Source of the DNA: Armatimonadota bacterium
GTDB taxonomy: Bacteria > Armatimonadota > UBA10988
Direction: 5' to 3'
Length of the DNA stretch: 45,072 nt
Assembly (NCBI GenBank): GCA_016183835.1
Contig: JACPDV010000418.1
Coordinates: 1 to 45,072, forward strand
Below, one piece after another: positions 1 to 12,516 of the stretch. A model generated the notes under the pieces. It did no database searches, was not told the origin of the DNA, and saw only the letters and a list, made by a program, of their open reading frames with translations. The translations under genes were made by a program, and so were the position numbers. The stretch's first letter is position 1, and each line of letters starts with the position of its first letter.

Positions 1-2217
1 CACGCGCACCACCGCCGGATCGAGCCGGCGCGGCTCGACCTCGAGGAAACCCGACGGATGGTCGCCGGCCTGCTCCGCCAGCGCGGGCTGCTCGGCGCCG
101 AGACTCCGGTCGAGGACAGCCTCGCCGTCGCCGTATACGGCAAGTCGATGGGCAACCCGTTCTTCATCGACCAGACGGTGAACGCCCTCCTCGAGCGCGC
201 GGCGCAGACGGGGCGGCCCACCATCGACCACCGCCGCGGGCGGCTGTTGATCCCCGAAGAGGAGCTGCACGACCTGGTGCCGGGGAGTGTGGAGGAGATC
301 CTCCTGGCGCGCATCGACCGGCTCCCCGACGAACCGCGACGGGTGCTCCAGGCGGCCGGCGTGGCCATGATCGGCCGCTACTTCCGCCGCAGCGCGCTCG
401 AGTTCGTCCTCGACGAGACCGCCGCCGACGTGGGTCAGGCGCTGGCCGTGCTGCAGGAGCGCGAGCTCGTCCGGCATGCCGGCGGGCAGGCCGACGACCA
501 GTACTCGTTCGAGCACACCCTCGCCCGCGACGTGGCCTACAACGCCCTCCTCCGCGCCGAGAGGCGCCGCCTCCACGGGCGCGTGGGCGAGTACATCGAG
601 ACCCACTACGCCCACAGCGTGGAGGCCTACGTCGACGACCTGTCGTACCACTTCTACAACTCGGCCTTCCCCGCCAAGGCGCTGGAGTACCTGCCGCAGA
701 GCGCGTCACGCGCGCGCCGGAGCTTCTCCAATCAGCAGGCCATGCTGCATTTCAAGCGGGCGCTGGAGAAGACCGACGAGGTCGACGGCGGGCGGCAGTC
801 GACCGACACCAATCAGCTCCGCCTGTCGCTGCTCAAAGGGCTGGTGGGCGTGCAGGTGCTGGTCGGCGATCGCGAGGCCATCGCTACCGGCCGTGAGCGG
901 CTCGCGCTGGCGCAGCAGATGGGCGATGCCGAGGCGGTCCTCGACGCCTCCTACATGCTCGCCCACAAGCTCACGGAGCTGGGCCAGTTCGAGGAGGCGC
1001 GCTCCTACTTCGGCATGGTGCTGGACGAGTACGAGCGGCGCGAGGACTGGCAGGGGCTGTGCGACACGGAATTCGGGGTCGGCCACTTCCACGCCCAGCA
1101 GGGCCGCTGGGCCGAGGCGCTCGAGCACTTCCAGCGCGCGCTGGAGGTGCAGGTGGAGCGGCTGGCCTTCAATCCGTTCTACCAGTGCGTGGTGAACACC
1201 AACCTGGCCGCCGCGTACGAGGGGCTGAGCCGTTTCCAGGAGGCGCTGCGGGCCTGCGCCGCCTGCGCCGAGCTGCTGCCCAAGCTGCCCGACGACGATC
1301 CCGACCGGATGCGGCTCGAAGCCTACGTGTTCGGCATCACCGGCTCGGCCCACACGCACCTGGGCGAGCTGGAGGAGGCGGTCACCGCCTACCTCCGCAC
1401 CCTGGCCATCGCGCAGGCCACGGGCGAGCGGAACATCGAGGCCGAGGTGCGTTGCGTGTTCGCCCGCGCACTCCTGTGGCTAGGCCGCGTGACCGAGGCG
1501 AGGACGCACCTGGACGAGGCCATCGAGCTGTCGCGCGAGACCGGCAACACCCGCTGGGAGGCTGCCGGGCTGGTGCAGCGCGGCGAGCTGCTGCTCGGCC
1601 TGGGCCGCAACGCCGAAGCCGCCGAGCAGGCCTCTGCCGCCCACGCGGTGACCGAGCAGGTCGGCGAGCTGGCCGTGGCCGGCGAGCTGGGCGTGCTCGA
1701 GGCCCGGCTCGCCCTCGCCGGGGGCCACGCCGCCGTCGCCGCCGAGCGGCTCGAAGCTCTGGCCCGCGAAGCGCAGGAGGGCCACCGGCCGCTCGAGCAC
1801 GCCACGGCCCTGGTCCACCTGGCCGAGGCCGAGCATGCCCGCGGCAGCGCCGACGCCGCGGGACGGCACCTGCACGACGCCCTGGCCCTGTGCCACGAGC
1901 GCGGCCTGCGCATTCTGGAGGCCCGCGCCCGGCTGGTGCAGGCCCGCCTGGCGGCCGAGGAGGAGGCCCTCGCAGCCGTGGAGACGGCGCTCTTCCTGGC
2001 CGGCGCCACGCACACCCCCGAGCTGTTCGCCGCCGCGCTGGGGCTGCGCGCCGAGCTGCAGGCCCCCGCGGATCTGGCGGCGGCCCTGGCCGATCTGGAG
2101 GAGGCCGACGCCCGGCTCGCCGAGCTGCAGCCCCAGTGCGGCGACGAGTTCGTGCGCGCGGTCGAGCAGCGCTACCTCGACCCGGTACGGGAGCGGCTCA
2201 AGGCCGGCACGGGATGA
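1..2217 (+). CDS. STAND-type (AAA_16-like) ATPase/TPR regulator, C-terminal part; 5' end lies outside the window
   Basis: Frame 1 is open from nt 1, with no stop before the ATG at 58, so the gene enters from upstream. GNPFFIDQ, RIDRLPDEPRRVLQAAGV..GRYF and YSFEHTLARDVAY..RRRLH are the helical-lid/winged-helix motifs that follow the P-loop in large ATP-binding LuxR/adenylate-cyclase-type regulators. The remainder is TPR-like A/L/E-rich repeats. Stop TGA is at 2215-2217. Confidence 0.75.
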   Translation, partial: HAHHRRIEPARLDLEETRRMVAGLLRQRGLLGAETPVEDSLAVAVYGKSMGNPFFIDQTVNALLERAAQTGRPTIDHRRGRLLIPEEELHDLVPGSVEEILLARIDRLPDEPRRVLQAAGVAMIGRYFRRSALEFVLDETAADVGQALAVLQERELVRHAGGQADDQYSFEHTLARDVAYNALLRAERRRLHGRVGEYIETHYAHSVEAYVDDLSYHFYNSAFPAKALEYLPQSASRARRSFSNQQAMLHFKRALEKTDEVDGGRQSTDTNQLRLSLLKGLVGVQVLVGDREAIATGRERLALAQQMGDAEAVLDASYMLAHKLTELGQFEEARSYFGMVLDEYERREDWQGLCDTEFGVGHFHAQQGRWAEALEHFQRALEVQVERLAFNPFYQCVVNTNLAAAYEGLSRFQEALRACAACAELLPKLPDDDPDRMRLEAYVFGITGSAHTHLGELEEAVTAYLRTLAIAQATGERNIEAEVRCVFARALLWLGRVTEARTHLDEAIELSRETGNTRWEAAGLVQRGELLLGLGRNAEAAEQASAAHAVTEQVGELAVAGELGVLEARLALAGGHAAVAAERLEALAREAQEGHRPLEHATALVHLAEAEHARGSADAAGRHLHDALALCHERGLRILEARARLVQARLAAEEEALAAVETALFLAGATHTPELFAAALGLRAELQAPADLAAALADLEEADARLAELQPQCGDEFVRAVEQRYLDPVRERLKAGTG

Positions 2218-5180
2218 ACCGGCGCCCCCGCTGCCCACGGTGTCCCGCGGCGCGTCTCCTGGCGGCGCTCCTGGCCGCCGGGCTCGCCGGCCCGGCCGCG
2301 GCGCAGCCGCTGGTCAGGGTGGACGGCGTGGTCGCCCGGAGCGCGCCCGCCGGCAGCCGGCCGGGCTCGCGCGCGGGCACGCGGGTCGAGCTGCTCGCGC
2401 TCCACGGGTCCGCCACGGCGACGGCGCTCACCGATGCCCACGGCGCGTTCCATTTCGAGGCCGTGGCCCCGGGCGACTACCAACTGGAGGCCTCCGGCCC
2501 CGGCGCCGAGGGCGCGCTACGCTTCATCACGGTCGCCCCGGACGGCGACTACACCTGCCGGGTGGTGCTCGCCTCGCACTCGGAAGCGCTCCTTCTGACC
2601 GTCTTCTGGAGCGCTCTGGCCCTGCTGATCGCCGTCGCCGCGTGCGCCACGATCCTGCTCTACGGATTGTCGCGGCGCCACAGCGAGACCTCGGCGCCGC
2701 GCTCGGTGACGGTGGCGGTGGGGCTGTGGGCGGCGGCGTTCGCGCTCTATGCCGTGCTCGCGCCCGACATGCAGCCGCTGCTGCTCGAAGTGGCGGCGCC
2801 GCTCAGCTCGCTCTTGGCGGCGCTGGTGGGCGCCTGCGTGGTGCTGGTGATGGTCGAGCTGCGGCTGCCGCCGCTGGCGGCGGCGCTGGGCTGCCTCTCC
2901 GGGCTGCTGCTGGCGGTGGCCAGCCGCGCCGCGCTGCCGCCCGGCACGCCGATGTGGCTGGGCATCGGTGTGGGCTTGCTGTTCTGGACCACGGCGGCGG
3001 GCACGCTGATCGCGGTGCCGCTGAAGCGCAAGAGCTTCGTCGTGCTGGCCGCCATCCTGGTCGCGATGGTGGATGCCTGGAGCGTGACCTGCGGCCCGAC
3101 CGGGGCCCTGGTGCAGAGCCACGCGCCGGCGGCCGTCCGGCTGGCATCCCTGGGCGTGCTGCCCTGGCCGGTGCTCGGCTCCGACCTGGTGAACGGGGTG
3201 ATCGGATCGGGCGACTTCCTCTTCCTGGCCTGGTTCCTGGCGGCGGCGCAGCGGTTCGACATGGGTGTCGTGCGCAACTTCTGGGCGCTCCTGGCGGCGC
3301 TGAGCACCGGCATCATCCTGGCCCACGTGATGCAGCACACGGGCGTGGTGGCGGTGGGGCTGCCGGCGCTGCCGTTCCTCTGCGTGTTCTTTCTGGCGGC
3401 CAACGCCGGGCAGTTCGAGCTGCTGCCGCGCGAGCGGAAGCAGATTGCCGGCTGCGCCGCGGGCGTCGGCCTGGTCCTGGCGGGCCTGAGCTGGTGGACT
3501 CTGACGCGGCAGCCGGTGGAGCAGGTGGATGTGCGGCTCGACGCCCCTGCGGGCCGGGCCCGGGCGGCGCGGCTGTGGGACCCGGAGGCGCCGGCGGTGG
3601 CTCCGCTGGGGCCGCCCGATGCACACGGCGTGCGGAGTGCCGGCTGCACCGCCGATGTGGATGGGAGGCCGTGCCCGGTGACGGGGTTCCTGGCGGCGCC
3701 CTCCGGCGCGCGGGCGGCGGTGGTGGAGCTGGTGCCGCCCGACAGCTATGCCGCAGCGGCGGCGGGCTGGTGGGCGGCGCGGGGCAAAGCCTGCCTGGCG
3801 ATTGCGGGGCCCGCCGCCGGCCGGGAGCCGTACGACGTGTTCCCCCGTGTGCACGGCTCGTCGCTCTACGCGGCGGGTGCGGCGGCGCTCGCCGGGATGC
3901 AGGTCCTGCGCGGGCAGGCCGGCCTGGTGCCGGTGGCGCTGGTGGGCACCGGCTGGGGCGGCGTGGCGGCGCTCGATCTGGCCGCCGATTGTCCGGACGT
4001 GGCGGCGGTGGTGGCGGCGGGCGCCGGCGACCCGGCCGAGGGCGACGGCGCCGTGGCGCGCGGGCTGGCAGCAGAGTCGGCGGCCACTCGCGAGCGCTGG
4101 CTGGCGCGTTACGGTCCTGCGGGCCGTGCGGCCGGCTTGCAGCGGCCGGTCCTGCTGGTCGCCGCCGCCAACGATCCGGACGCCACCCTGCCATCGGTGG
4201 TCGCCTTGCGCCGGGCACTGGACGGGGGCGGGACGCGGCTGGTGATCCTGCCCAACGCCGACCGCACGGAGCCATCCGGCCGGCCGGCGGCGGCGCAGTG
4301 GCTCGATCAAGCGCTGCGCGGCGCGGCTGGCGCGATCCCGGAGCCGGGGCTCGAGGCGGCCGCCGACGGCGCCCGGCTGCGGCTCACCGCCACCGGCTGC
4401 AGCGCGGCCAACACGGCCTCGGCCACGTTCTACCTGTCTTGCTTCCCCGAGCCGCGCGGCGGCTGGGCGGGCCGCTGGTGGAGCGCGCTCCCGGGCCGCG
4501 TGGAGAGCGGGCGCTGGACGGCGCTGGCGGAGCTGGCCGGGAGCCTGGACCGCATTGCCGCCTTCGTCGAGGTGCGCGGGCGCGACGGGGCGCGGGTCTG
4601 CTCCCTGCCGCTCGTGGCCGGCGCCGCCGACCTTGGTTTGCAGCCCACGGCGGCGGTCTGGCCGAACCCGGTGATCGCCGCCTTCGAGCAGGGCGATGAG
4701 GGCTGGCGGGGCGGGGTGCCCGGCGCCGCCGCGCCGCGCGGCGGGGCGCTCGAGGTGAGCGTGCCGCCGGACCGAGGTGGTGTCCGGCTCACCACCAACC
4801 GCGTGGGCGCGCTCCCCGAGCTGGGTGGCCAGGCCGCCACGCTGGACTTGACGCTGCGTGCGGACGATCGGATCCGCATCGAGGCGTGGATCGTCGAACG
4901 CTTCGGGACTGTCGTAGAACGGCGCTTCGAGGCGCAGGGCGAAGTGTCTGCGGGAGCGCGCCAGACCGTGCGACTGCGGCTCGATCAGTTTCACATGGCC
5001 GACCGCTCCGCCCGGTTGGTCTGGCAGGCCGTGGACACCCTTGAGCTGGGCCTGACCAGGGCCGGCGCCGAGTACGTCGTCGGACTGGAGCCCGGCAGCC
5101 CCGGTCCCAAGTTGCGGCTCGAGCGGATCGCCCTGGCCGGCCCCGGCTACGGCGCGGTGCGGGCGGTGGAGACGAGATGA
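2214..5180 (+). CDS. Multidomain membrane protein: signal peptide, CarboxypepD_reg-like domain, presenilin/SPP-like GxGD polytopic core, degenerate alpha/beta-hydrolase-like domain, C-terminal beta-rich domain
   Basis: ATG 2214 overlaps the upstream stop (ATGA). There is a Sec signal (LLAALLAAGLAGPAAA/QP) and a CarboxypepD_reg-like motif (TDAHGAFHFEAVAPGDYQLEA). About 10 hydrophobic helices carry VAMVDAWSV (D at 3072-3074), VIGSGDFLF (D at 3213-3215) and GLPALPF (3363-3371). These are followed by VALVGTGWGGVAAL ... LLVAAANDPD ... LPNADR. The 1059-2213 part of the track ORF is an R/G/P-rich out-of-frame shadow of the upstream gene. Confidence 0.8.
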   Translation: MNRRPRCPRCPAARLLAALLAAGLAGPAAAQPLVRVDGVVARSAPAGSRPGSRAGTRVELLALHGSATATALTDAHGAFHFEAVAPGDYQLEASGPGAEGALRFITVAPDGDYTCRVVLASHSEALLLTVFWSALALLIAVAACATILLYGLSRRHSETSAPRSVTVAVGLWAAAFALYAVLAPDMQPLLLEVAAPLSSLLAALVGACVVLVMVELRLPPLAAALGCLSGLLLAVASRAALPPGTPMWLGIGVGLLFWTTAAGTLIAVPLKRKSFVVLAAILVAMVDAWSVTCGPTGALVQSHAPAAVRLASLGVLPWPVLGSDLVNGVIGSGDFLFLAWFLAAAQRFDMGVVRNFWALLAALSTGIILAHVMQHTGVVAVGLPALPFLCVFFLAANAGQFELLPRERKQIAGCAAGVGLVLAGLSWWTLTRQPVEQVDVRLDAPAGRARAARLWDPEAPAVAPLGPPDAHGVRSAGCTADVDGRPCPVTGFLAAPSGARAAVVELVPPDSYAAAAAGWWAARGKACLAIAGPAAGREPYDVFPRVHGSSLYAAGAAALAGMQVLRGQAGLVPVALVGTGWGGVAALDLAADCPDVAAVVAAGAGDPAEGDGAVARGLAAESAATRERWLARYGPAGRAAGLQRPVLLVAAANDPDATLPSVVALRRALDGGGTRLVILPNADRTEPSGRPAAAQWLDQALRGAAGAIPEPGLEAAADGARLRLTATGCSAANTASATFYLSCFPEPRGGWAGRWWSALPGRVESGRWTALAELAGSLDRIAAFVEVRGRDGARVCSLPLVAGAADLGLQPTAAVWPNPVIAAFEQGDEGWRGGVPGAAAPRGGALEVSVPPDRGGVRLTTNRVGALPELGGQAATLDLTLRADDRIRIEAWIVERFGTVVERRFEAQGEVSAGARQTVRLRLDQFHMADRSARLVWQAVDTLELGLTRAGAEYVVGLEPGSPGPKLRLERIALAGPGYGAVRAVETR

Positions 5181-6451
5181 GCATCCGGCCGCGGTGGTTT
5201 CTCCTGGCCCTCCCGGCGCTGGCCGCCCTGGCCGTGGGCGATGCGCCGCGTGAGCCTCTGACCATCGTTGTCTGTGGCTTGACGCAGGACTACCTGGAGG
5301 CCTGCGGCTGCGGCGGGCAGACCGCCGGCGGCCTGGCCCGGCGGGTGGGAGTGATCAAGGAGCTGCGCGCCGAGATGCCCGGCCTGGTGCTGATCGACGC
5401 CGGCGACCTGGGCGTCAAGGACCAGACCCTCGCCGTGATCGCCCGCAGTCTGGCCGCGGCGGGGGTCGATGCCGTGGGCATGGCGGGCGGCGACCTGGGC
5501 CGCTACGCCACCCTCGCGGCGGCGGCCAGGCTGCACGCCCTCCCCTTCACCAGCCTCGCCACCCCCGCCCCGCCCGTGCCGGGCGTGGCCGCGCCGCCCG
5601 GCTCGGTGACGATCGAGCGCTCGAGCGGGTGGCGCGTGGGCGTGGTGTCGCTGGCCCACAGCCCCGACTCCGTCAGCACGATGGCGGCCCGTTGTGCCGC
5701 GGAGCTGAAGCGGCTCAAGGCGGCGGGCTGCCAGGTCACCGTCCTCATCTCGCACCTTGGCGATGACTCCATCGACCGGCTGATGGCCACGCTTCAGCCC
5801 CGGCCGGACCTGATCCTGTACGCCACCAGCCAGAACTTCCCCGGCATGCCGGAGGAGCGGGGCGGCTGCTGGTGGGTGCCGATCTCACACCGCGGCCGAT
5901 CGGTGGGCGTGATCAGCGTCAGCGCCGGGGCGGACGGGCTCGACATCAGCGTGGCACAGAGCCTCCTCGCCCGCGGACCCATCGACCCGGTGGTGCAGGG
6001 CTGGGTGGATGGCTACTACCAGACGCTGCGGGCCGGACAGGTGGAGCAGACGGGGGAGCGCCCGGCCGCCAGCTACCCCGCGCCGAGCGAGTGCGAGAAG
6101 TGCCACGCCGCGTCGGTGGCGGCCTGGCGGAAGCACCCCCACGCCCACGCCGTGGAGACGCTCGAGGAACGCGGGCGGGACGTGGCGGCGTGCCTCGTGT
6201 GCCATGCCGAGTCGCTCCGGCGCGACGGACAGCGCCCGCCGCAGAAGGGCGACCGCGGCGTGGAGTGCGCCACCTGCCACCAGGGCCTGGCCGAGCACCT
6301 GAAGGACGCGACGCGGCATCCCACGAGCGCGGCGGAGAAGGACTGCGTGGTCTGCCACAACGCCGAGAACAGCGCCCACTTCACCTTCGCGACGTATCGT
6401 GGTAGCGTAGTGAAGGCCTGCCGCGGCGGCGGTGGAGGAGACGCGAAGTGA
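5177..6451 (+). CDS. Secreted tetra-haem c-type cytochrome with a degenerate 5'-nucleotidase/metallophosphatase-like N-domain
   Basis: ATG 5177 overlaps the upstream stop (ATGA) and is followed by a signal peptide (FLLALPALAALAVG). There are four CxxCH motifs: CEKCH 6092-6106, CLVCH 6191-6205, CATCH 6266-6280 and CVVCH 6344-6358. The N-terminal part (GGLARRVGVIKELRAEMPGLVLIDAGD) resembles the 5'-nucleotidase/SoxB-type fold but lacks the DxH/GNHE metal ligands. Confidence 0.8.
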   Translation: MSIRPRWFLLALPALAALAVGDAPREPLTIVVCGLTQDYLEACGCGGQTAGGLARRVGVIKELRAEMPGLVLIDAGDLGVKDQTLAVIARSLAAAGVDAVGMAGGDLGRYATLAAAARLHALPFTSLATPAPPVPGVAAPPGSVTIERSSGWRVGVVSLAHSPDSVSTMAARCAAELKRLKAAGCQVTVLISHLGDDSIDRLMATLQPRPDLILYATSQNFPGMPEERGGCWWVPISHRGRSVGVISVSAGADGLDISVAQSLLARGPIDPVVQGWVDGYYQTLRAGQVEQTGERPAASYPAPSECEKCHAASVAAWRKHPHAHAVETLEERGRDVAACLVCHAESLRRDGQRPPQKGDRGVECATCHQGLAEHLKDATRHPTSAAEKDCVVCHNAENSAHFTFATYRGSVVKACRGGGGGDAK

Positions 6452-6651
6452 AACGACTGCGCAAGGTCCTGACCTGCCTGCTGCTGGCCCTGCCGCTGCT
6501 CTGCTCGGCCGCGGGCTGCAAGAAGAGCGACAAGGGCTACGACGAGATCGGCGCGCCGGCGGCGGACGTCAACGCCATCCGCCAGGAGTCGCGGGAGCGC
6601 AAGGCGCGCGGCGAGAAGCCCGTCGCGCCCCCAGCGGACGCTCCGAAGTAG
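6448..6651 (+). CDS. Small lipoprotein (67 aa)
   Basis: GTG 6448 overlaps the upstream stop (GTGA). MKRLRKVLTCLLLALPLLCSAAGC is a lipoprotein signal with a lipobox (AAG-C). The tail is rich in charged K/E/R/P residues. Confidence 0.6.
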   Translation: MKRLRKVLTCLLLALPLLCSAAGCKKSDKGYDEIGAPAADVNAIRQESRERKARGEKPVAPPADAPK

Positions 6652-6749: not shown

Positions 6750-7610
6750 ATGCCGCAAGTCGAGCCGTTGGCATTGGGCGTGATGATGGGTCTCCACGGC
6801 GACCCGCTCGAGTCGTTCAAGAAGCTCCGGGACCTGGGCTTCTCCACCTGCCAGCTCGGCGGACCGCCGGAGAGCTATGTCAGCGGGCCCGACGCCGAGC
6901 GGCTCACCGACCAGTTCCGCGAGGCGCTCGCCGCCACGGGTGTCACCGTCACCTCGGTCTTCATCATGTACAGCGGCCACGTGTGGGACCTGGTGAAGGG
7001 CCCCAACACCATCGGCCTGGTGCCCGCCGACAAGCGCGGCGCGCGGGTGGTGCAGGCGGTGCGGGTGAGCAACTGGGCGCGGAGCGCCGGGATCGACGCG
7101 GTCACCTCGCACATCGGGTTCATCCCCGAAGATCCCGACGACCCGAACTTCCCGCCCTTCGTCGAGACGATGCAAGCGCTGGTGGACTACTTCATCGACA
7201 ACGGGCAGACCTTCGCCTTCGAGACCGGGCAGGAAACCGCCGCCACGCTGGTGCGCACCATCCAGGCCATCGACCGGCACCCCCACGTCGGGATCAACCT
7301 GGACCCGGCCAACCTGCTCCTGTACGGCAAGAACCGGCCGATGGAAGTGGTGGACCTGGTGGCGCCGTACGTCTTCAACACCCACTGCAAGGACGGGCAT
7401 CTGCCCGAGCCGGGCGGCAAGCTGGGCCACGAGGTGGCCCTCGGCGAGGGCGATGTGCGCATACGTGAGCTGATCCCGGCGTTGTACGAGCGCGGCTATC
7501 GCGGCCCGCTGACCATCGAGCGCGAGATCAGCGGCGAGAAGCAGACGCAGGACATCCTGCGGGCCAAGGCGCTGTTGGAGGAGATCCGCGGCAAGCTGCT
7601 GGGCCGCTGA
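6750..7610 (+). CDS. Sugar phosphate isomerase/epimerase (xylose-isomerase-like TIM barrel)
   Basis: ATG 6750 has AGGAG at 6736-6740. Motifs HIGFIPED, FAFETGQE, GINLDPANLLLYG and TIEREI are typical of the AP_endonuc_2/xylose-isomerase-like TIM-barrel family. The track ORF start at 6432 overlaps the two upstream genes and is rejected. Confidence 0.8.
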   Translation: MPQVEPLALGVMMGLHGDPLESFKKLRDLGFSTCQLGGPPESYVSGPDAERLTDQFREALAATGVTVTSVFIMYSGHVWDLVKGPNTIGLVPADKRGARVVQAVRVSNWARSAGIDAVTSHIGFIPEDPDDPNFPPFVETMQALVDYFIDNGQTFAFETGQETAATLVRTIQAIDRHPHVGINLDPANLLLYGKNRPMEVVDLVAPYVFNTHCKDGHLPEPGGKLGHEVALGEGDVRIRELIPALYERGYRGPLTIEREISGEKQTQDILRAKALLEEIRGKLLGR

Positions 7611-7771: not shown

Positions 7772-8836
7772 GTGGCGAACCTGACGAGTGAGTCCGGCAT
7801 CATCAAGACGGCCTGCCATGCCCGCGCCGGCCTGATCGGCAACCCGTCGGACGGGTTCTACGGTAAGACCATCGCCGCGATCGTGCGCAACTGGCGCGCC
7901 ACGGTGCAGATCTGGGCCAGCCCGGAGCTGGTCATTCAGCCCAACCGCACCCACGACCCGCAGCTCTTCGACAGCCTCGGCGAGCTGTTCGTCACCGCCC
8001 AGCGCGAGGGCTACTACGGCGGGCTGCGGCTGCTCTATGCCACCTGCAAGCGGTTCTACGAGGAGACCCAGACGCGTCGGATCCTCCTCCCCGCCGGCAA
8101 CTTCACCGTGCGCTACGAGACCGACATCCCGCGCGGCGTGGGCCTGGCCGGGTCGAGCGCCATCATCACCGCCACCTTCCGCGCCCTGATGGAGTTCTAC
8201 GGTGTGCCCGAGGACGCCTTCGGCAAGCCGGTGCTGCCCAACCTGGTGCGCAGCGTGGAGACCGAGGAGCTGGGCCTCACCGCCGGCCTGCAGGACCGTG
8301 TGATCCAGACCTACGGCGGCTGCGTCTACATGGACTTCGACCGCGAGCGGATGCAGCGCGACGGCCACGGGCTGTACGTGCCGCTCGACCCGATCCAGCT
8401 ACCGCCGCTCTACATCGCCTACATCAGCAACCCGAGCGAGAGCAGCAGCATCCACAGCCCCATCCGCGTGCGCTGGGAGCGCGGCGATCCCGAGGTGGTC
8501 GCCGCTATGCTGCAGTTCGCCTCCTACGCCGAGCAATTCCGCCAGGCCCTGGACGCGGGCGACACCGACGAGCTGGGCGCCCTGATGAACGCCAACTTCG
8601 ACCTCCGCCGCCAGCTCTACGGCGACGAGGTGATCGGCCGCGACTGCCTCCGCATCATCCGCATCGCCCGCGAGTGCGGCGCCAGCTCCACCTTCGCCGG
8701 GAGCGGCGGGGCCATCATCGGCATCTATCGCGACGACCGCCACTTCGACGAGCTGAGCGCCGCCTTCGCCGCCGCCGGCTACCCGGTCGTCAAGGCCCGC
8801 GTGGGCGGCGCCGGCCACGGTGACGGATGCGACTGA
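7772..8836 (+). CDS. GHMP-family sugar-1-kinase, glucuronokinase-like
   Basis: GTG 7772 has GAAGGAG at 7757-7763. The GHMP motif is GVGLAGSSAIITA. ARAGLIGNPSDGFYGKTI, GYYGGLRLL, LQDRVIQTYGG..YMDF, LPPLYIAY and NFDLRRQL..DE line up with what I remember of plant glucuronokinase (GlcAK). Confidence 0.75.
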   Translation: MANLTSESGIIKTACHARAGLIGNPSDGFYGKTIAAIVRNWRATVQIWASPELVIQPNRTHDPQLFDSLGELFVTAQREGYYGGLRLLYATCKRFYEETQTRRILLPAGNFTVRYETDIPRGVGLAGSSAIITATFRALMEFYGVPEDAFGKPVLPNLVRSVETEELGLTAGLQDRVIQTYGGCVYMDFDRERMQRDGHGLYVPLDPIQLPPLYIAYISNPSESSSIHSPIRVRWERGDPEVVAAMLQFASYAEQFRQALDAGDTDELGALMNANFDLRRQLYGDEVIGRDCLRIIRIARECGASSTFAGSGGAIIGIYRDDRHFDELSAAFAAAGYPVVKARVGGAGHGDGCD

Positions 8837-9840
8837 TCGATCGCTACCTGCTCGAGGAGATCGCCACCCCGTTCGTGGTCGGGGTGATGGTGATCCTGGT
8901 CATGCTCCTCGGCGACCAGCTCTACCAGCTCCTCATGCTGGTCATCACCCGCGGCGTCTCCGTGGTGACGGTCAGCCGGCTCCTGCTCTTCAAACTGCCT
9001 AGCATGACGGTGGTGGCCTTGCCCCTGGCCGTGATCCTGGCCACGTCGCTCGGCCTCGGCCGGCTGGTGCGCGAGGGCGAGTGGACCAGCCTGCGCCTCG
9101 GCGGCGCCGGCCTGCGCCGGCTGCTTCGGCCGATTCTCGTCTTCGGCCTGGCCATCACCGCGCTGAGCTGGGTGGTGGGCGAATCCATCGCCCCGCCGGC
9201 CCTGGCGCAGTTCGAGCGGATCCAGACCGAGCTGGCGGTGGCCGACCCGACCATCGTGGTCCAGCCGCAGCGCTGGTTCAAGCCGGGCTCGTCGCGCGCT
9301 TGGTTCTACGTCAACGAGCTCGACCCGCGCACGGGGATCATGCGCAACGTGGTGATCTTCAGCGACGAGCAGAGCGACTACCCGACCGCGCTGTTCGCCC
9401 GCGAGGCGCGGTTCGACCAGGAGAAGTTCTACCTCACCGACGTGGCGCGCCACGTCTGGCGGCCGGACGGCACGCTCCAGCGCGAGGCGACGACGCAGCG
9501 GGTGATCCTCAACGTGGCCCGCCTCTCGCCCCGGCTGGCCGGCTCGGCGCTGAGCACCGACGAGATGTCGGCGTCGCAGATCCGCGAGATGATCGAGCGC
9601 TCCGGGCAGCAGGGCGTCGCGCGGCCCGACCAGGTCCTCGACCTGCACCGCCGTTACGCCGCGCCGGCGGCGTGCCTGGTCCTCGCCCTGCTCTGCGTGC
9701 CGCTCAATCTGCTCACTGCGCGGCGCGGGAGCTTCGCCGGCCTGCGCCGGCTGCTTCGGCCGATTCTCATCTTCGGCCTGGCCATCACCGCGCTGAGCTG
9801 GGTGGTGGGCGAATCCATCGCCCCGCCGCGGAGAACGCCG
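8827..9840 (+). CDS. LptF/LptG (YjgP/YjgQ)-family permease, apparently 3'-truncated and reading in frame into the next gene
   Basis: ATG 8827 overlaps the kinase gene by 10 nt. The MRLIDRYLLEEI start is typical of the family. It is followed by three TM helices, a ~170-aa periplasmic domain and TM4 (RRYAAPAACLVLALLCVPLNLL..RRGSF). The sequence then jumps into a duplicate of the TM3-coding segment (9735-9828). There is no stop codon before 12516, and the expected last TM helices are missing. Confidence 0.65.
9105..9198 (+). repeat. 94-bp direct repeat, copy 1 (codes for LptF/G TM3)
   Basis: It is identical to 9735-9828 except at 9139 (g, versus a at 9769). The offset is exactly 630 bp, which keeps the frame. 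Confidence 0.95.
9735..9828 (+). repeat. 94-bp direct repeat, copy 2 (junction between the permease and heparinase-like genes)
   Basis: It matches 9105-9198 at 93 of 94 positions. It ends 1 nt before the GGAG and 12 nt before the ATG of the heparinase-like lipoprotein gene. Confidence 0.95.
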
Positions 9841-12516
9841 ATGCCCGCCCGTCTCCTCCTCCCCCTCTTCCTCGCCGGCTGCGCCAACGCCACCCTCACC
9901 ACCCACCCGCGGGTCTACTTCGACTCCGCCGGCCTCCAACGCCTCCGCGCGCTCAGCCGGCAGACCGACGCCACCGTCTACGGCTTCGCGCCCGCCGACG
10001 GATGGGCGGCCATCCTCGCCCGGGCCCGCGCCCTCGCCAACGGACCGGCCTACCACTACGAAGTTCAGATCCCGGCCGTCAACAACGAGCACGCCGGCTG
10101 GAAGTGGAGCTACACCCTCTCCGCCACGCCGCCGCCGCGGCACGACGAGTCCCCTCACTACCCGCCCTGGACCGCCCTCTTCCAGGAGCGCGAGGACAGC
10201 ATCTCCACCCGGCTCAAGCTCTTCTCCCTCGCGTACCTGATCACCGGCGAGGACCTGTTCTACCAGAAGGCCCGCGAGATTGCCTTCGACCTGGCCCAGT
10301 GGCCGCAGTGGACCGACCCCAGCTACGGCGGGCTCCCGGCCTGCCTCGACACCGGCCACTGCACCCAGACGATGGGCCTCTTCTACGACTGGTGCTACGA
10401 CAAGCTGGCCCCCGCCGAGCGCGAGCAGTTGCGCGGCGCCATCGTCGACAAGGGCATCCTGGCCCTCACCGCCACCCTGCCGAAGACCGAAGCCCACTGG
10501 AACGGCTGGGGGGTGTTCACCACCGGGCTCGGCGTCGCCGCGCTGGCGCTGGTGGGCGAAGAGGACCGCGCGCCCGGCTGGGTGCAGACTTCCATCGACA
10601 ACGTGAAGACGTACGACGACCTGCAGGGCAGCGACGGCGGCAGCTTCGAGGGGCCGATGTACGGCACCTACGCCGCGGACAGTCTCGCCGCGCTCCTCTT
10701 CGCCCTCGACAGCTCGCAAACCGCCCACGGCCTGAAGGGGCACCCCTTCCTGGCCGGCCTGCCGCGCTTCGCCGTCAACGGCCTCTCGCCCCACGTCAAA
10801 GGCATCGCCACGTTCGGCGACGGCGGTTTCACCGCCGCCTACCCTCGCACCCTGGCCATGCTCGCCGCCGGCGGCGACGAGGCGGCGCGCTACTACCTTC
10901 TGGCTGCCGGCCTGCTGGGCGGCCTGAACGGCATCGACGACTTCCTCTTCAACGGCCCGCTGCTCGCGGCCAAGGAGCTGCCCGGGCCGCCCGCATGGCT
11001 GGGCAGCGACGCCTTCACCGACGTCGGCTACGCGTTCCTCCGCGGCGGCGACGACGATCCGTACCTGGCCTTCAAGTGCGGCCCGGCCACGGTGGCCGTG
11101 GGGCACAACCACTACGACGCCAACAGCTTCCAGATCACCGCCTCCGGCGGCGTGGCGGCGGCCGATCCGGGCTACCGGAGCTACTTCAACCCGCCCATGC
11201 GGCGCTACACCACCAGCACGTTCGGCCACAACACGGTGGTGCTCGACCTCGACAACGCCTACCTCCAGAACCAGGCCGACAGCGTGGCCGGGCACGACCA
11301 GTTCAACCTGGCCGGCGGCCGGCTGATCGAGGCCTTCACCGCGCCCGGCATCGGCTTCCTCACCGGCGAGGCGGCGGCGACCTACAACTCCGCCAACGCC
11401 AAGGTGCTGGACCGCTTCGCCCGCCGCATCGTCGCCATCCCGCCGCACGGCTTCGTGATTCGCGACGAGCTGGCCGCGCCGGCGCCGCACACCTTCAGTT
11501 GGCTGCTCCACGGGCCGAACGGCGCCGAAGTGTCGGCGGCGGCGAACGCCGCCACCCTCGAGCAGGCGCGGGTGGTCCTCCAGGCGGGCGTGTGGTCGCC
11601 GGGCGGTGTGACCTGGCGGTCGGGCACCTACCCGGGCGCGGAGAGCTACGGTCCGTACGCCGCGGCGACCACGGCGCGGCCCGCCACGTCCGCCGCCTTC
11701 ACCGCGGCACTGGTGCCGCGGGCCAACCCGAAGCTGCTGATGAACCCCGGCTTCGAGCGCGATCTGGCCGGCTGGGCCATCCGCTCCGGCGAGGACGGGC
11801 CGCACCACAGGGTGTCCCCCGAGCAGCCGCACTCCGGCACGAAGTGCGGCCGGATCGAGAAGTCGGGCTACTTCTACACCAGCCACTTCGTCCTGCCGCC
11901 CGGCACGAAGTACACGGCCCGGGTCTGGCTGCGGACCGAGGGCGCGGCCAAGGGCGGCGAGATGGTGGTCTACTACTGGCGCGGCGGCACCGCGTTCGCC
12001 AGTGAGCGCACGCCGCCGACGGTGTCCGAGGCCAAGTGGACGCAGCTCACCGTGACCGGCACGGTGCCTGCCGACTGCCAGGAGGTGTGCGTGGCGCTGA
12101 ACTATTTTGACACCGGCGCGGGCTGCTGGGATGACCTGGAGTTCACCCCGGACGCGGCGCCGCAGGCGATGACGCCCGCCCGGATCGAGTCGCTCGGGGC
12201 CGACGCGGCCGACGGCGTCGGCGTGGCGGCGGACGGCTGGACGCACTGGGTGGTGTTCAGGTCTACTGGGCCGGTGGAGACCGACGGGCGGATGGCGGTG
12301 GTGTCGGTCGCGCCGGACGGTCAGGTGGCGCGGGCGCTGCTCGACGGCGGGACGCGGCTGACGTTCGAGGGCAAGCCGGTCCTGCGCAGCACGCAGCGCT
12401 GCACGGCGTCGTTCTGGCGAGGCGCGAAGGGCGTCGAGTCGGCGGTGCAGCTCGATCTGGCGCCGCATGCCGCGGCCATTCGGTGGGAGGCGGTGGGGCT
12501 CGTGGTGGGCGGATGA
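9841..12516 (+). CDS. Heparinase II/III-like (polysaccharide lyase-like) lipoprotein with C-terminal CBM4_9-like domain
   Basis: The internal ATG 9841 has GGAG at 9830-9833. MPARLLLPLFLAGC is a lipobox signal. The heparinase II/III signature is GHNHYDANSFQITASG..DPGY...FGHNTVVLD. The C-terminus (NPGFERDLAGW ... HSG ... WTQLTV) resembles a CBM4_9/galactose-binding-like module. It is in frame with 8827, so the track gives one 1229-aa ORF. Confidence 0.8.
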   Translation: MPARLLLPLFLAGCANATLTTHPRVYFDSAGLQRLRALSRQTDATVYGFAPADGWAAILARARALANGPAYHYEVQIPAVNNEHAGWKWSYTLSATPPPRHDESPHYPPWTALFQEREDSISTRLKLFSLAYLITGEDLFYQKAREIAFDLAQWPQWTDPSYGGLPACLDTGHCTQTMGLFYDWCYDKLAPAEREQLRGAIVDKGILALTATLPKTEAHWNGWGVFTTGLGVAALALVGEEDRAPGWVQTSIDNVKTYDDLQGSDGGSFEGPMYGTYAADSLAALLFALDSSQTAHGLKGHPFLAGLPRFAVNGLSPHVKGIATFGDGGFTAAYPRTLAMLAAGGDEAARYYLLAAGLLGGLNGIDDFLFNGPLLAAKELPGPPAWLGSDAFTDVGYAFLRGGDDDPYLAFKCGPATVAVGHNHYDANSFQITASGGVAAADPGYRSYFNPPMRRYTTSTFGHNTVVLDLDNAYLQNQADSVAGHDQFNLAGGRLIEAFTAPGIGFLTGEAAATYNSANAKVLDRFARRIVAIPPHGFVIRDELAAPAPHTFSWLLHGPNGAEVSAAANAATLEQARVVLQAGVWSPGGVTWRSGTYPGAESYGPYAAATTARPATSAAFTAALVPRANPKLLMNPGFERDLAGWAIRSGEDGPHHRVSPEQPHSGTKCGRIEKSGYFYTSHFVLPPGTKYTARVWLRTEGAAKGGEMVVYYWRGGTAFASERTPPTVSEAKWTQLTVTGTVPADCQEVCVALNYFDTGAGCWDDLEFTPDAAPQAMTPARIESLGADAADGVGVAADGWTHWVVFRSTGPVETDGRMAVVSVAPDGQVARALLDGGTRLTFEGKPVLRSTQRCTASFWRGAKGVESAVQLDLAPHAAAIRWEAVGLVVGG

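Follow-up and report, generated by a model that had tools for sequence, protein, structure and literature searches.

Is the membrane core of a large Armatimonadota protein a bacterial member of the presenilin/signal peptide peptidase (SPP) class of intramembrane proteases? To our knowledge, presenilin/SPP-type (MEROPS A22) proteases have been characterized in eukaryotes and archaea, and the GxGD proteases discussed in bacteria are the type IV prepilin peptidases. The question is raised by a gene near one end of a 45,072-nucleotide stretch of DNA (the window), whose product was originally predicted, from the DNA alone, to hold a presenilin/SPP-like GxGD core among several other domains. Translation of positions 2214-5180 of the forward strand reproduced every gene and motif coordinate of that prediction. 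The product is a single-chain, multi-domain inner-membrane protein, and its features and those of the neighboring genes are as follows.

1-2217, forward strand: 3' part of the upstream gene, cut by the window start; TPR/MalT-like region (profile and orthologues)
2214-5180, forward strand: the whole gene, one ORF of 988 aa plus stop
2214-2306, forward strand: Sec-type signal peptide, aa 1-31 (...LAGPAAA/QP), from sequence, with a hydrophobic segment at aa 12-31
2307-2573, forward strand: CarboxypepD_reg-type beta-sandwich, aa 32-120 (Pfam PF13620; seven beta-strands at aa 34-120 in the model)
2577-3509, forward strand: ten-helix membrane core, aa 122-432 (hydropathy and AlphaFold model)
3072-3074, forward strand: codon of D287, the first putative catalytic Asp, in TM6 (VAMV-D-AWSV-TC-GPT); conserved in 125/126 relatives
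3204-3215, forward strand: G331-S-G-D334, the GxGD motif; G331 and D334 each 126/126
3363-3371, forward strand: P384-A-L, the PAL motif, aa 384-386, directly before TM9; P 124/126, L 115/126
3621-4316, forward strand: pseudo-esterase with an alpha/beta-hydrolase fold of the CE7 acetyl-xylan-esterase/dienelactone-hydrolase (DLH) type, aa 470-701 (profile, Foldseek, model secondary structure)
3951-3953, forward strand: codon of G580 at the nucleophile-elbow position (G-T-G-W-G-G for the expected G-x-S-x-G; CE7 alignment)
4347-4622, forward strand: first C-terminal beta-sandwich, aa 712-803 (model secondary structure, block pLDDT ~57-89)
4671-5165, forward strand: second C-terminal beta-sandwich, aa 820-984 (model secondary structure and homologue alignment)
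5177-6451, forward strand: downstream gene for a secreted 424-aa protein with four CxxCH heme motifs and a cytochrome c554/c7-like C-terminus
6448-6651, forward strand: 67-aa lipoprotein (lipobox LLCSAAG-C), conserved in loci L001 and L002

At the N-terminus, the predicted Sec signal can be read from the sequence and an equivalent N-terminus aligns in all full-length homologues; the domain that follows is therefore periplasmic. That domain was expected to be a CarboxypepD_reg-like sandwich, and PF13620 indeed matches aa 54-119 (E 4.4e-8, 33.8 bits against a cut-off of 32.3), and no other Pfam domain in the 988-aa protein passes its curated cut-off. At the other end the original prediction placed a single beta-rich domain. 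The region is beta-rich, but the model resolves it into two beta-sandwiches (aa 712-803 and 820-984), the second of which contains a conserved TN-x-V-x-x-L motif and conserved W937, V940 and D941.

The domain between the membrane core and these sandwiches had been described as a catalytically dead alpha/beta hydrolase, a view upheld by both fold and residues. A profile of the C-terminal region matched cephalosporin C deacetylase in the PDB (E 5.8e-8), and Foldseek returned target-normalized TM-scores of 0.74 for 4ao7, 0.67 for DLH and ~0.6 for CE7 esterases. Over aa ~470-701 the domain therefore shares fold and profile with CE7 acetyl xylan esterase/cephalosporin C deacetylase and with dienelactone hydrolases. 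These enzymes have a nucleophile Ser, whereas the family consensus VGdGwGG falls on the deacetylase TGGSQGG with Gly at the Ser position. In nine homologues the nucleophile column reads G/G/G/G/E/G/A/G/G (Gly in 7/9, Glu or Ala in 2/9) and never holds Ser or Cys. The catalytic His position is variable, with Arg in the 988-aa protein and His in only about half of the homologues. A Ser-His-Asp triad was thus not found in the 988-aa protein or, at the nucleophile column, in the nine homologues. Judged by its aligned residues, the alpha/beta domain is confirmed to be catalytically dead.

In the membrane core, hydropathy and the AlphaFold model alike give 10 TM helices, in agreement with the predicted ten-helix arrangement with Asp residues on the sixth and seventh helices and PAL at the ninth. 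The AlphaFold (AF2) model of this region is confident (pLDDT 89.5, pTM 0.86). VDAWSV begins at aa 286, the D334 codon lies at 3213-3215, and the motifs are spaced by 47 aa (D287 to D334) and 50 aa (D334 to P384). In the model GSGD lies where a beta-hairpin (aa 315-319 and 326-331) meets the N-terminal start of TM7. According to the model and to positive-inside counts, the two Asp residues sit on adjacent helices (TM6 and TM7) within the membrane and, together with PAL, at the same periplasmic membrane face. Based on the sequence and the helix limits of the model, the predicted cytoplasmic loops hold 12 Arg+Lys and the periplasmic loops 2. From this model we infer an SPP-like topology of the core with its active site toward the periplasm. 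The modeled order of TM6, short helix, beta-hairpin, GxGD/TM7, TM8 and PAL/TM9 parallels that of substrate-bound presenilin-1, which has TM6a and a beta-strand before GxGD.

Conservation of these residues was counted after MAFFT alignment of 126 relatives, drawn from a library that had been clustered at 50% identity. D287 is kept in 125 of the 126, G331 and D334 in all, P384 in 124 and L386 in 115. Nine full-length homologues show no change at D287, G331, D334 or P384. Orthologues and distant relatives thus retain both Asp residues and PAL, and this near-complete conservation indicates that the motifs reflect more than chance. Positions next to the Asp residues are freer. The residue before the second Asp is G in 79 relatives, A in 21, T in 12 and S in 9; GxAD or GPPD replaces GxGD in some relatives (GPPD in some Gaiellaceae). 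Before the first Asp the family has mainly A (45), V (37) or I (19) and never predominantly Tyr; the YD motif of A22 enzymes was accordingly not found at this Asp, which is preceded by V in the 988-aa protein and by [A/V/I] in the family.

A library of 1.84 billion representatives yielded 220 clusters of the core family at E ≤ 1e-3, and the genomes of the core family that have been placed to date are all bacterial MAGs. Standalone relatives of ~250-320 aa with roughly 9 TM helices occur in Armatimonadota, Gaiellaceae, Bacillota and other MAGs. In most of them the Asp helix is preceded by four helices and the PAL helix is followed by an extra one, and their helix count therefore differs from the 5+4 of A22. 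Of the 10 helices of the 988-aa protein, 5 come ahead of the Asp helix; TM1 is specific to the fusion subfamily, and TM2-TM10 match the ~9-TM standalone family. The domain combination had been called unfamiliar, and its rarity is borne out: Armatimonadota MAGs alone yielded the fusion.

The relationship of the core to A22 proteases was examined by profile comparison. The 988-aa protein itself gave no match to the curated Pfam models of the A22 class, which comprises PF01080, PF04258 and PF06550 (archaeal SPP/PSH-type), and no NCBIfam match, even at E up to 10. A profile of 37 family sequences searched against 177,635 PDB sequences matched only presenilin-1 and presenilin-2 (E 0.004-0.005), with GxGD and PAL both in register and GSGD placed on GLGD. 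By hhalign the family profile aligned with the presenilin-1 C-terminal fragment from GxGD through PAL (88% probability, E 3e-6) and with an SPPL2A fragment (63%, E 7e-5), where GSGD falls on GFGD, PAL is aligned and R-F-D, 13-15 residues after the Asp, is aligned as well. Sub-threshold Pfam matches in 116 members included 16 to this class (10 Presenilin and 6 Peptidase_A22B, best E 3.7e-4), while other membrane families recurred in at most 2 of the 116 among the families listed (in a second scan, the best 25 of 47). The N-terminal half behaves differently. The region from the first Asp to the N-terminus gave no significant presenilin profile match: hhalign returned 0.3% for the core family against a presenilin N-terminal-fragment profile, a narrow one of 30 animal-only sequences, and likewise 0.3% against a TM5-TM6 presenilin fragment; with so narrow a profile this comparison is a weak one. 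Only the G-P...V-E piece after the first Asp aligns in these comparisons. At the level of sequence profiles, homology to A22 is shown to be detectable in the GxGD-to-PAL half.

For the modeled core, the eight best Foldseek matches in the PDB are all presenilin-1 in gamma-secretase, with probabilities of 0.77-1.00 (1.00 for the first four) and TM-scores that are low (0.32-0.39, with large rmsd). Among viral predicted structures (BFVD) the best match is a Megaviridae (giant-virus) signal peptide peptidase with a TM-score of 0.34. Neither profile nor fold searches assigned the TM region to an unrelated family; their recurrent and top matches are presenilin and SPP, which together with the motif conservation supports the proposed presenilin/SPP-like GxGD core. 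The more specific resemblance to archaeal PSH that had been suggested did not hold, as PSH entries were absent from the profile search and the solved PSH structure, like that of SPPL2A, was not among the best 50 Foldseek matches.

How closely does the core follow the known systems? With presenilin-1/2 (PF01080, MEROPS A22A) it shares an aligned GxGD-F-x-F at the start of a helix, PALP ~50 residues later and an Asp in the preceding helix with a conserved G-P after it; presenilin-1 gives the top structural matches, and the short helix and beta-strand before its GxGD also appear in the model. Presenilin differs in its opposite orientation, since the TM6-TM7 loop of the core is predicted to be periplasmic and is short, lacking the long cytosolic loop. 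The core also has VD rather than YD, an extra helix after the PAL helix and a dissimilar N-terminal half, and its ectodomains are covalently fused whereas presenilin has separate partners. With SPP/SPPL (PF04258, A22B; SPPL2A, PDB 9k92) the core would share its orientation, with the N-terminus out and an exoplasmic active site, which implies N-in/C-out substrates; GxGD, R-F-D at +13 to +15 and PAL of SPPL2A all align with the core family. SPPL2 proteases, too, have an accessory domain (PA), which lies on the luminal side. SPPL2A is nevertheless a weaker match, with the 63% hhalign probability and 9k92 outside the best 50 Foldseek matches. The accessory domains also differ, being CarboxypepD_reg, pseudo-esterase and beta-sandwiches here, and TM10 is additional. 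Archaeal PSH (structure PDB 4HYG) is a precedent for the standalone relatives, which differ in being bacterial and in mostly having four rather than five helices before the Asp helix. The PSH enzyme MCMJR1 is a GxGD diaspartyl protease of ~300 aa with 9 TM helices and needs no partner subunits for its activity (PMC2947513). Nicastrin and the PDZ domains of RseP-type site-2 proteases offer only a conceptual analogy, that of an exoplasmic filter over an intramembrane protease. Nicastrin, too, is a catalytically dead hydrolase fold, but it is a separate subunit, and neither it nor the PDZ domains have a sequence or fold relation to the dead CE7/DLH-type domain that forms part of the same polypeptide here. 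No nicastrin, APH-1 or PEN-2 partners were evident for the fusion.

The fusion gene is tightly embedded among its neighbors. Its start ATG shares ATGA (2214-2217) with the stop of the upstream gene, its stop shares ATGA (5177-5180) with the start of the downstream gene and the lipoprotein gene is translationally coupled to the cytochrome gene (GTGA, 6448-6451); 4-bp start/stop overlaps thus link the upstream, fusion, cytochrome and lipoprotein genes. Full-length orthologues of the truncated upstream gene encode a double zinc ribbon, a class III nucleotidyl cyclase, AAA_16 (STAND NTPase) and TPR. The pairing of cyclase-STAND-TPR gene and fusion is kept in the examined Armatimonadota loci L001, L002, L005, L006, L008 and L009, and in the loci examined the fusion subfamily always lies directly downstream of the cyclase-STAND-TPR gene. 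This also holds for a short 440-aa form that has neither the C-terminal domains nor the cytochrome neighbor. Orthologues of the 424-aa cytochrome lie directly downstream of the fusion in L001, L002 and L004.

The explanation of the whole that we favor, with modest confidence, is that the core is a divergent homologue of presenilin/signal-peptide-peptidase (GxGD, MEROPS A22-type) proteases. In this explanation D287 (TM6) and D334 (GxGD, TM7) would form the catalytic dyad and PAL on TM9 would complete the active site, with dyad and PAL at the periplasmic helix ends. The orientation would be that of signal peptide peptidase and opposite to that of presenilin, and the enzyme should therefore cut N-in/C-out TM segments such as signal peptides, signal anchors and type II membrane proteins. 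The core is probably catalytically active as an intramembrane protease. The CarboxypepD_reg sandwich, the dead esterase and the two beta-sandwiches would all be periplasmic; their likeliest role is that of built-in modules for binding or gating, by which substrates are selected or admitted. We advance such gating of substrates by the ectodomains tentatively. The fusion may work as one module with the cytoplasmic cyclase-STAND-TPR protein, the cytochrome and the lipoprotein, either processing or clearing the N-in/C-out signal sequences of its neighbors' products or releasing a fragment that is sensed by the TPR/STAND protein. A functional link to the cyclase, suggested by gene order alone, is somewhat doubtful. 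The fusion may, as the original prediction suggested, be a device for regulated intramembrane proteolysis. A farther-reaching version would make the fusion a single-polypeptide bacterial counterpart of gamma-secretase/SPPL2 with a dead-hydrolase lid and a released cytoplasmic fragment that is read by the co-translated cyclase-STAND-TPR protein. Here the nicastrin-like lid would measure or bind periplasmic ligands or substrate ectodomains, the intramembrane cut would couple a periplasmic event, possibly redox-related via the multiheme cytochrome, to cyclic-nucleotide signaling, and the several hundred standalone relatives would form an unrecognized bacterial presenilin/SPP-type clade. We regard this version as quite unlikely.

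The same protease chemistry could instead serve a housekeeping role, as a general signal-peptide peptidase or in membrane quality control, where it would remove spent signal peptides or orphan TM segments without any regulated signaling link to the cyclase. The standalone relatives (~250-320 aa) in Armatimonadota, Gaiellaceae, Bacillota and other MAGs do adjoin housekeeping-like genes (neighbors read by eye resemble ribulose-phosphate epimerase and leucyl-tRNA synthetase, and one upstream ORF resembles uracil-DNA glycosylase), and an SPP-like orientation fits N-in/C-out signal peptides. We nevertheless consider this role unlikely, as the fusion always adjoins the cyclase-STAND-TPR gene, even in the 440-aa short form, the two genes overlap by 4 bp in the window, and large dedicated ectodomains would be unexpected in a general scavenger.

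A different possibility is a core with the fold and motifs of presenilin that works not as a protease but as a channel, transporter or scaffold. Its conserved Asp residues would then hold an ion or the head group of a lipid, and the whole protein would be a periplasmic binding or sensor platform. Consistent with this, A22 sequence similarity is confined to half of the core, the TM-scores are low and the fused esterase domain has no nucleophile, a loss which shows that catalysis can be lost within this protein. However, it is precisely the A22 set (both Asp residues, the Gly at -3, and the Pro and Leu of PAL) that is most strongly constrained, and its members occupy the expected helices at a single membrane face. 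In a pseudo-enzyme some catalytic residues should have disappeared from some lineages, whereas the Asp residues persist in 125/126 and 126/126 relatives; we find this alternative very unlikely. Least probable by far, and in our view almost certainly wrong, is assignment of the core not to the presenilin/SPP branch but to the type IV prepilin/preflagellin peptidases (MEROPS A24, PF01478). A24 enzymes are well-known bacterial GxGD proteases with two Asp residues, but no Peptidase_A24 match to the 988-aa protein was obtained even at E up to 10, nor is A24 among the recurrent families listed for 116 relatives (in the second scan, the best 25 of 47). The conserved PAL and the GxGD-to-PAL spacing match presenilin and SPPL2A instead, and the operon holds no pilin or archaellin genes; pilin genes were likewise not found around the fusion in the examined loci.

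Taken together, the core points to an unannotated bacterial branch of the presenilin/SPP protease class, a family that keeps the Asp/GxGD/PAL signature yet is invisible to current Pfam and NCBIfam models. Within it, an Armatimonadota-specific subfamily has the core fused to periplasmic modules, including a pseudo-esterase, and hard-wired beside a cyclase-STAND gene. If active, the core would extend the A22 protease class to bacteria, provide small, partner-free and possibly tractable models for the presenilin/SPP mechanism and offer a natural test case for ectodomain gating of an intramembrane protease. Such activity would also suggest that, in phyla with few cultured members, a means of clearing signal peptides or of regulated proteolysis has been missing from the picture.

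Translation of positions 2214-5180 (+) of the window, which has a G+C content of ~72%, gives a single 988-aa protein. The gene overlaps both neighbours, its ATG lying over the upstream stop codon (ATGA, 2214-2217) and its stop codon over the downstream start (ATGA, 5177-5180). Ten helices are found in the membrane region both by hydropathy and in the AlphaFold2 model computed for residues 117-440. In this confident model (mean pLDDT 89.5, pTM 0.86), derived from a 37-sequence alignment, helix 6 holds D287, GSGD (G331 to D334) lies where a short beta-hairpin meets helix 7, and PAL (P384 to L386) directly precedes helix 9. The original prediction had read these motifs as the core of a presenilin/SPP-like GxGD intramembrane protease, and all of its coordinates proved correct (D287 codon, 3072-3074; GSGD, 3204-3215; D334 codon, 3213-3215; PAL, 3363-3371), as did the motif spacings of 47 and 50 residues. 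Scans of the whole window for tRNA and Rfam families returned no matches.

An exhaustive HMMER search of 1.84 billion cluster representatives with the membrane region retrieved 220 proteins at E ≤ 1e-3, about 10 of which are full-length fusions of 940-1020 aa and most of the others standalone membrane proteins of 250-320 aa. When 126 of the 220 were aligned, D287 was kept in 125, G331 and D334 each in all 126, P384 in 124 and L386 in 115, with G, A, T or S at the position preceding D334. These five columns are the most conserved of the family, which indicates that the motifs are under strong selection and rules out a chance pattern. A word-indexed homologue search, too insensitive for a phyletic survey, found three homologues with the whole protein and ten with the family profile.

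The sole Pfam match of the whole protein is CarboxypepD_reg, leaving the membrane core unrecognised. NCBIfam gave no matches for the window protein or for 37 relatives, and a search of PDB sequences with the whole protein gave just a non-significant match to NOMO2 through the CarboxypepD_reg domain. When a profile of the 37 relatives was searched against all PDB chain sequences, presenilin-1 and presenilin-2 were the only matches (E 0.004-0.005), with GxGD and PAL in register. Aligned by hhalign, the same profile matched a presenilin-1 fragment taken from the PDB-search output with 88% probability (E 3e-6) and the SPPL2A sequence (PDB 9k92) with 63% (E 7e-5), the latter alignment also pairing an R-F-D located 13-15 residues past the catalytic Asp. 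Among 116 relatives scanned singly against Pfam, sub-threshold matches to Presenilin occurred in 10 and to Peptidase_A22B in 6; no other membrane family appeared in more than 2 of the 116 among the matches listed. By Foldseek, the eight best PDB matches of the core model are all presenilin-1 of gamma-secretase structures, with probabilities of 0.77-1.00 (the first four 1.00), and among viral predicted structures a Megaviridae signal peptide peptidase ranks first. The TM-scores of these fold matches are just 0.34-0.39. The order of elements in the model (TM6, short helix, beta-hairpin, GxGD/TM7, TM8, PAL/TM9) resembles that of substrate-bound presenilin-1, with its TM6a and beta-strand before GxGD. 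We conclude that the membrane core belongs to the GxGD presenilin/SPP superfamily as a divergent branch outside any described family.

Against a presenilin N-terminal-fragment profile, the N-terminal half gives no significant match. This profile is narrow and animal-only; its query, a PDB-derived presenilin-2 fragment, retrieved exon-sized N-terminal fragments only. The TM5-TM6 presenilin fragment alone likewise shows no similarity to the family, so that the first-Asp half stays unmatched. The structures of archaeal PSH and SPPL2A are absent from the top 50 Foldseek matches of the core model. Whereas A22 enzymes have a Tyr before the first Asp, the window protein has Val and its family A, V or I. 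The standalone relatives begin at TM2 of the window protein, and by a rough hydropathy count most have four helices ahead of the one with the Asp and a single helix beyond the PAL helix; the family's nine helices are thus laid out unlike those of A22 enzymes.

The window protein has a Sec-type signal peptide at its N-terminus, and applying the helix limits of the model to the sequence gives 12 Arg and Lys residues in the predicted cytoplasmic loops versus 2 in the periplasmic loops. From these, the modelled topology has the N-terminal sandwich, the loop between TM6 and TM7 and all that follows TM10 in the periplasm. The predicted topology also puts D287 (in the C-terminal part of TM6), D334 (at the start of TM7) and PAL (at the start of TM9) toward the periplasmic face. 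Signal peptide peptidase has its active site oriented in this way and presenilin in the opposite one, which predicts N-in/C-out substrates for the putative protease.

Pfam delimits the CarboxypepD_reg beta-sandwich to residues 54-119. In a moderate-quality full-length model, built from nine sequences (pLDDT 69.6), the membrane region is followed by an alpha/beta domain at about residues 470-701 and two beta-sandwiches (residues 712-803 and 820-984), the latter two having no family assignment. Foldseek pairs the alpha/beta domain with esterases, with a target-normalised TM-score of 0.74 for 4ao7, 0.67 for dienelactone hydrolase and ~0.6 for CE7 acetyl xylan esterases, and a profile of the C-terminal region matches cephalosporin C deacetylase (E 5.8e-8). 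Alignment of the family's G-D-G-W-G-G to G-G-S-Q-G-G shows the nucleophile Ser replaced by Gly. Because this column is Ser or Cys in none of the nine homologues and at the catalytic His position (PNADR in the window protein) only about half of them carry His, the esterase domain is, as judged from sequence, a pseudo-enzyme throughout the fusion subfamily. This agrees with the earlier view of a catalytically dead alpha/beta-hydrolase domain.

The genes surrounding the fusion are as follows.

Window 1-2217 (+) (TPR end only), also L001 1173-4856 and L009 247-4263 (two other fusion loci): upstream cyclase-STAND-TPR gene
Window 5177-6451 (+): secreted 424-aa protein with four C-terminal CxxCH haem-binding motifs and Cytochrome_C554 / C7 matches
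Window 6448-6651 (+): 67-aa lipoprotein ORF, signal LLCSAAG-C, conserved AGCKK-DDWG-EIGAPAADVN, in translational coupling with the cytochrome gene
Window 6750-7610 (+): xylose-isomerase-like TIM-barrel gene (AP_endonuc_2), following the cassette in the window and two related loci
Window 7772-8836 (+): GHMP-kinase gene, next after the AP_endonuc_2 gene

Wherever the DNA flanking a fusion locus is long enough, the fusion gene lies directly 3' of a gene for a large cytoplasmic protein of 1,200-1,340 aa comprised of a double zinc ribbon, a class III nucleotidyl cyclase, an AAA_16/STAND NTPase and TPRs. The pairing extends to a 440-aa form devoid of the C-terminal domains. Directly downstream, most loci encode a c554/c7-like secreted protein of ~425 aa with four CxxCH motifs; the N-terminal two-thirds (~290 aa) of the window's copy has no Pfam match. 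The ~67-aa lipoprotein, which belongs to no Pfam family, follows the cytochrome gene in three loci (the window and two related ones), and in the window the cyclase-STAND-TPR, fusion, cytochrome and lipoprotein genes are coupled by 4-bp overlaps. The AP_endonuc_2 and GHMP-kinase genes look like ordinary metabolic genes.

In a 1,229-aa ORF farther along (8827-12516, +), an LptF/LptG permease (aa 6-305) is followed by a DUF4962 / heparinase II/III-like region. At the junction is a 94-nt direct repeat of 99% identity (9105-9198 and 9735-9828, 630 nt apart), and a lipoprotein-like signal, MPARLLLPLFLAGC, follows the second copy. Either a misassembly or a recent duplication giving a chimeric reading frame may account for this ORF.

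A survey of one genome per GTDB species, searched with the alignment of full-length homologues and biased toward relatives sharing the search peptides GDFLFLA and GLPALPF, placed all full-length fusions in Armatimonadota / Fimbriimonadaceae MAGs, and shorter relatives in Armatimonadota, Gaiellaceae/Thermoleophilia, candidate division WS1, Hebobacteria and Bacillota MAGs. Standalone relatives of ~247 aa from Gaiellaceae/Thermoleophilia MAGs (L035 5680-6423 and other Gaiellaceae loci within L011-L070) have G-P-P-D in place of GxGD and retain the first Asp and GLPALPF. Pro-Pro before a catalytic Asp would be out of the ordinary in the presenilin/SPP protease class.

Most likely, the core would act as an SPP-oriented intramembrane aspartyl protease. 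A non-catalytic protein with a presenilin fold, set beside aspartates kept in nearly every aligned relative, is rather improbable. Membership in the A24 prepilin peptidases is more improbable by far: no listed match supports it, and we rejected this identity from Pfam scans of the window protein and its relatives. The neighbours of the standalone relatives, read by eye, are ORFs resembling housekeeping genes, and a protease with a purely housekeeping role, in signal-peptide clearance or quality control, is conceivable, if unlikely, for a family whose fusion members keep a constant signalling neighbour.

For the SPP-oriented protease, the conserved periplasmic modules may bind or gate substrates, which would resemble nicastrin or the RseP PDZ domains in concept though not in ancestry. 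The cytochrome and the lipoprotein, co-transcribed with the fusion, provide the nearest candidate substrates in their N-in/C-out signal sequences. That the fusion gene is invariably paired with the cyclase-STAND-TPR gene tentatively suggests a pathway common to both proteins.

In the literature searched we found neither a description of a bacterial presenilin/SPP family nor an explicit statement that none exists, and an earlier in-silico mention is possible. What appears new is a bacterial family that carries the A22 signature, goes unrecognised by current models and has a helix layout shifted relative to A22, and that in Armatimonadota shows a multi-domain architecture with a fixed signalling neighbour.
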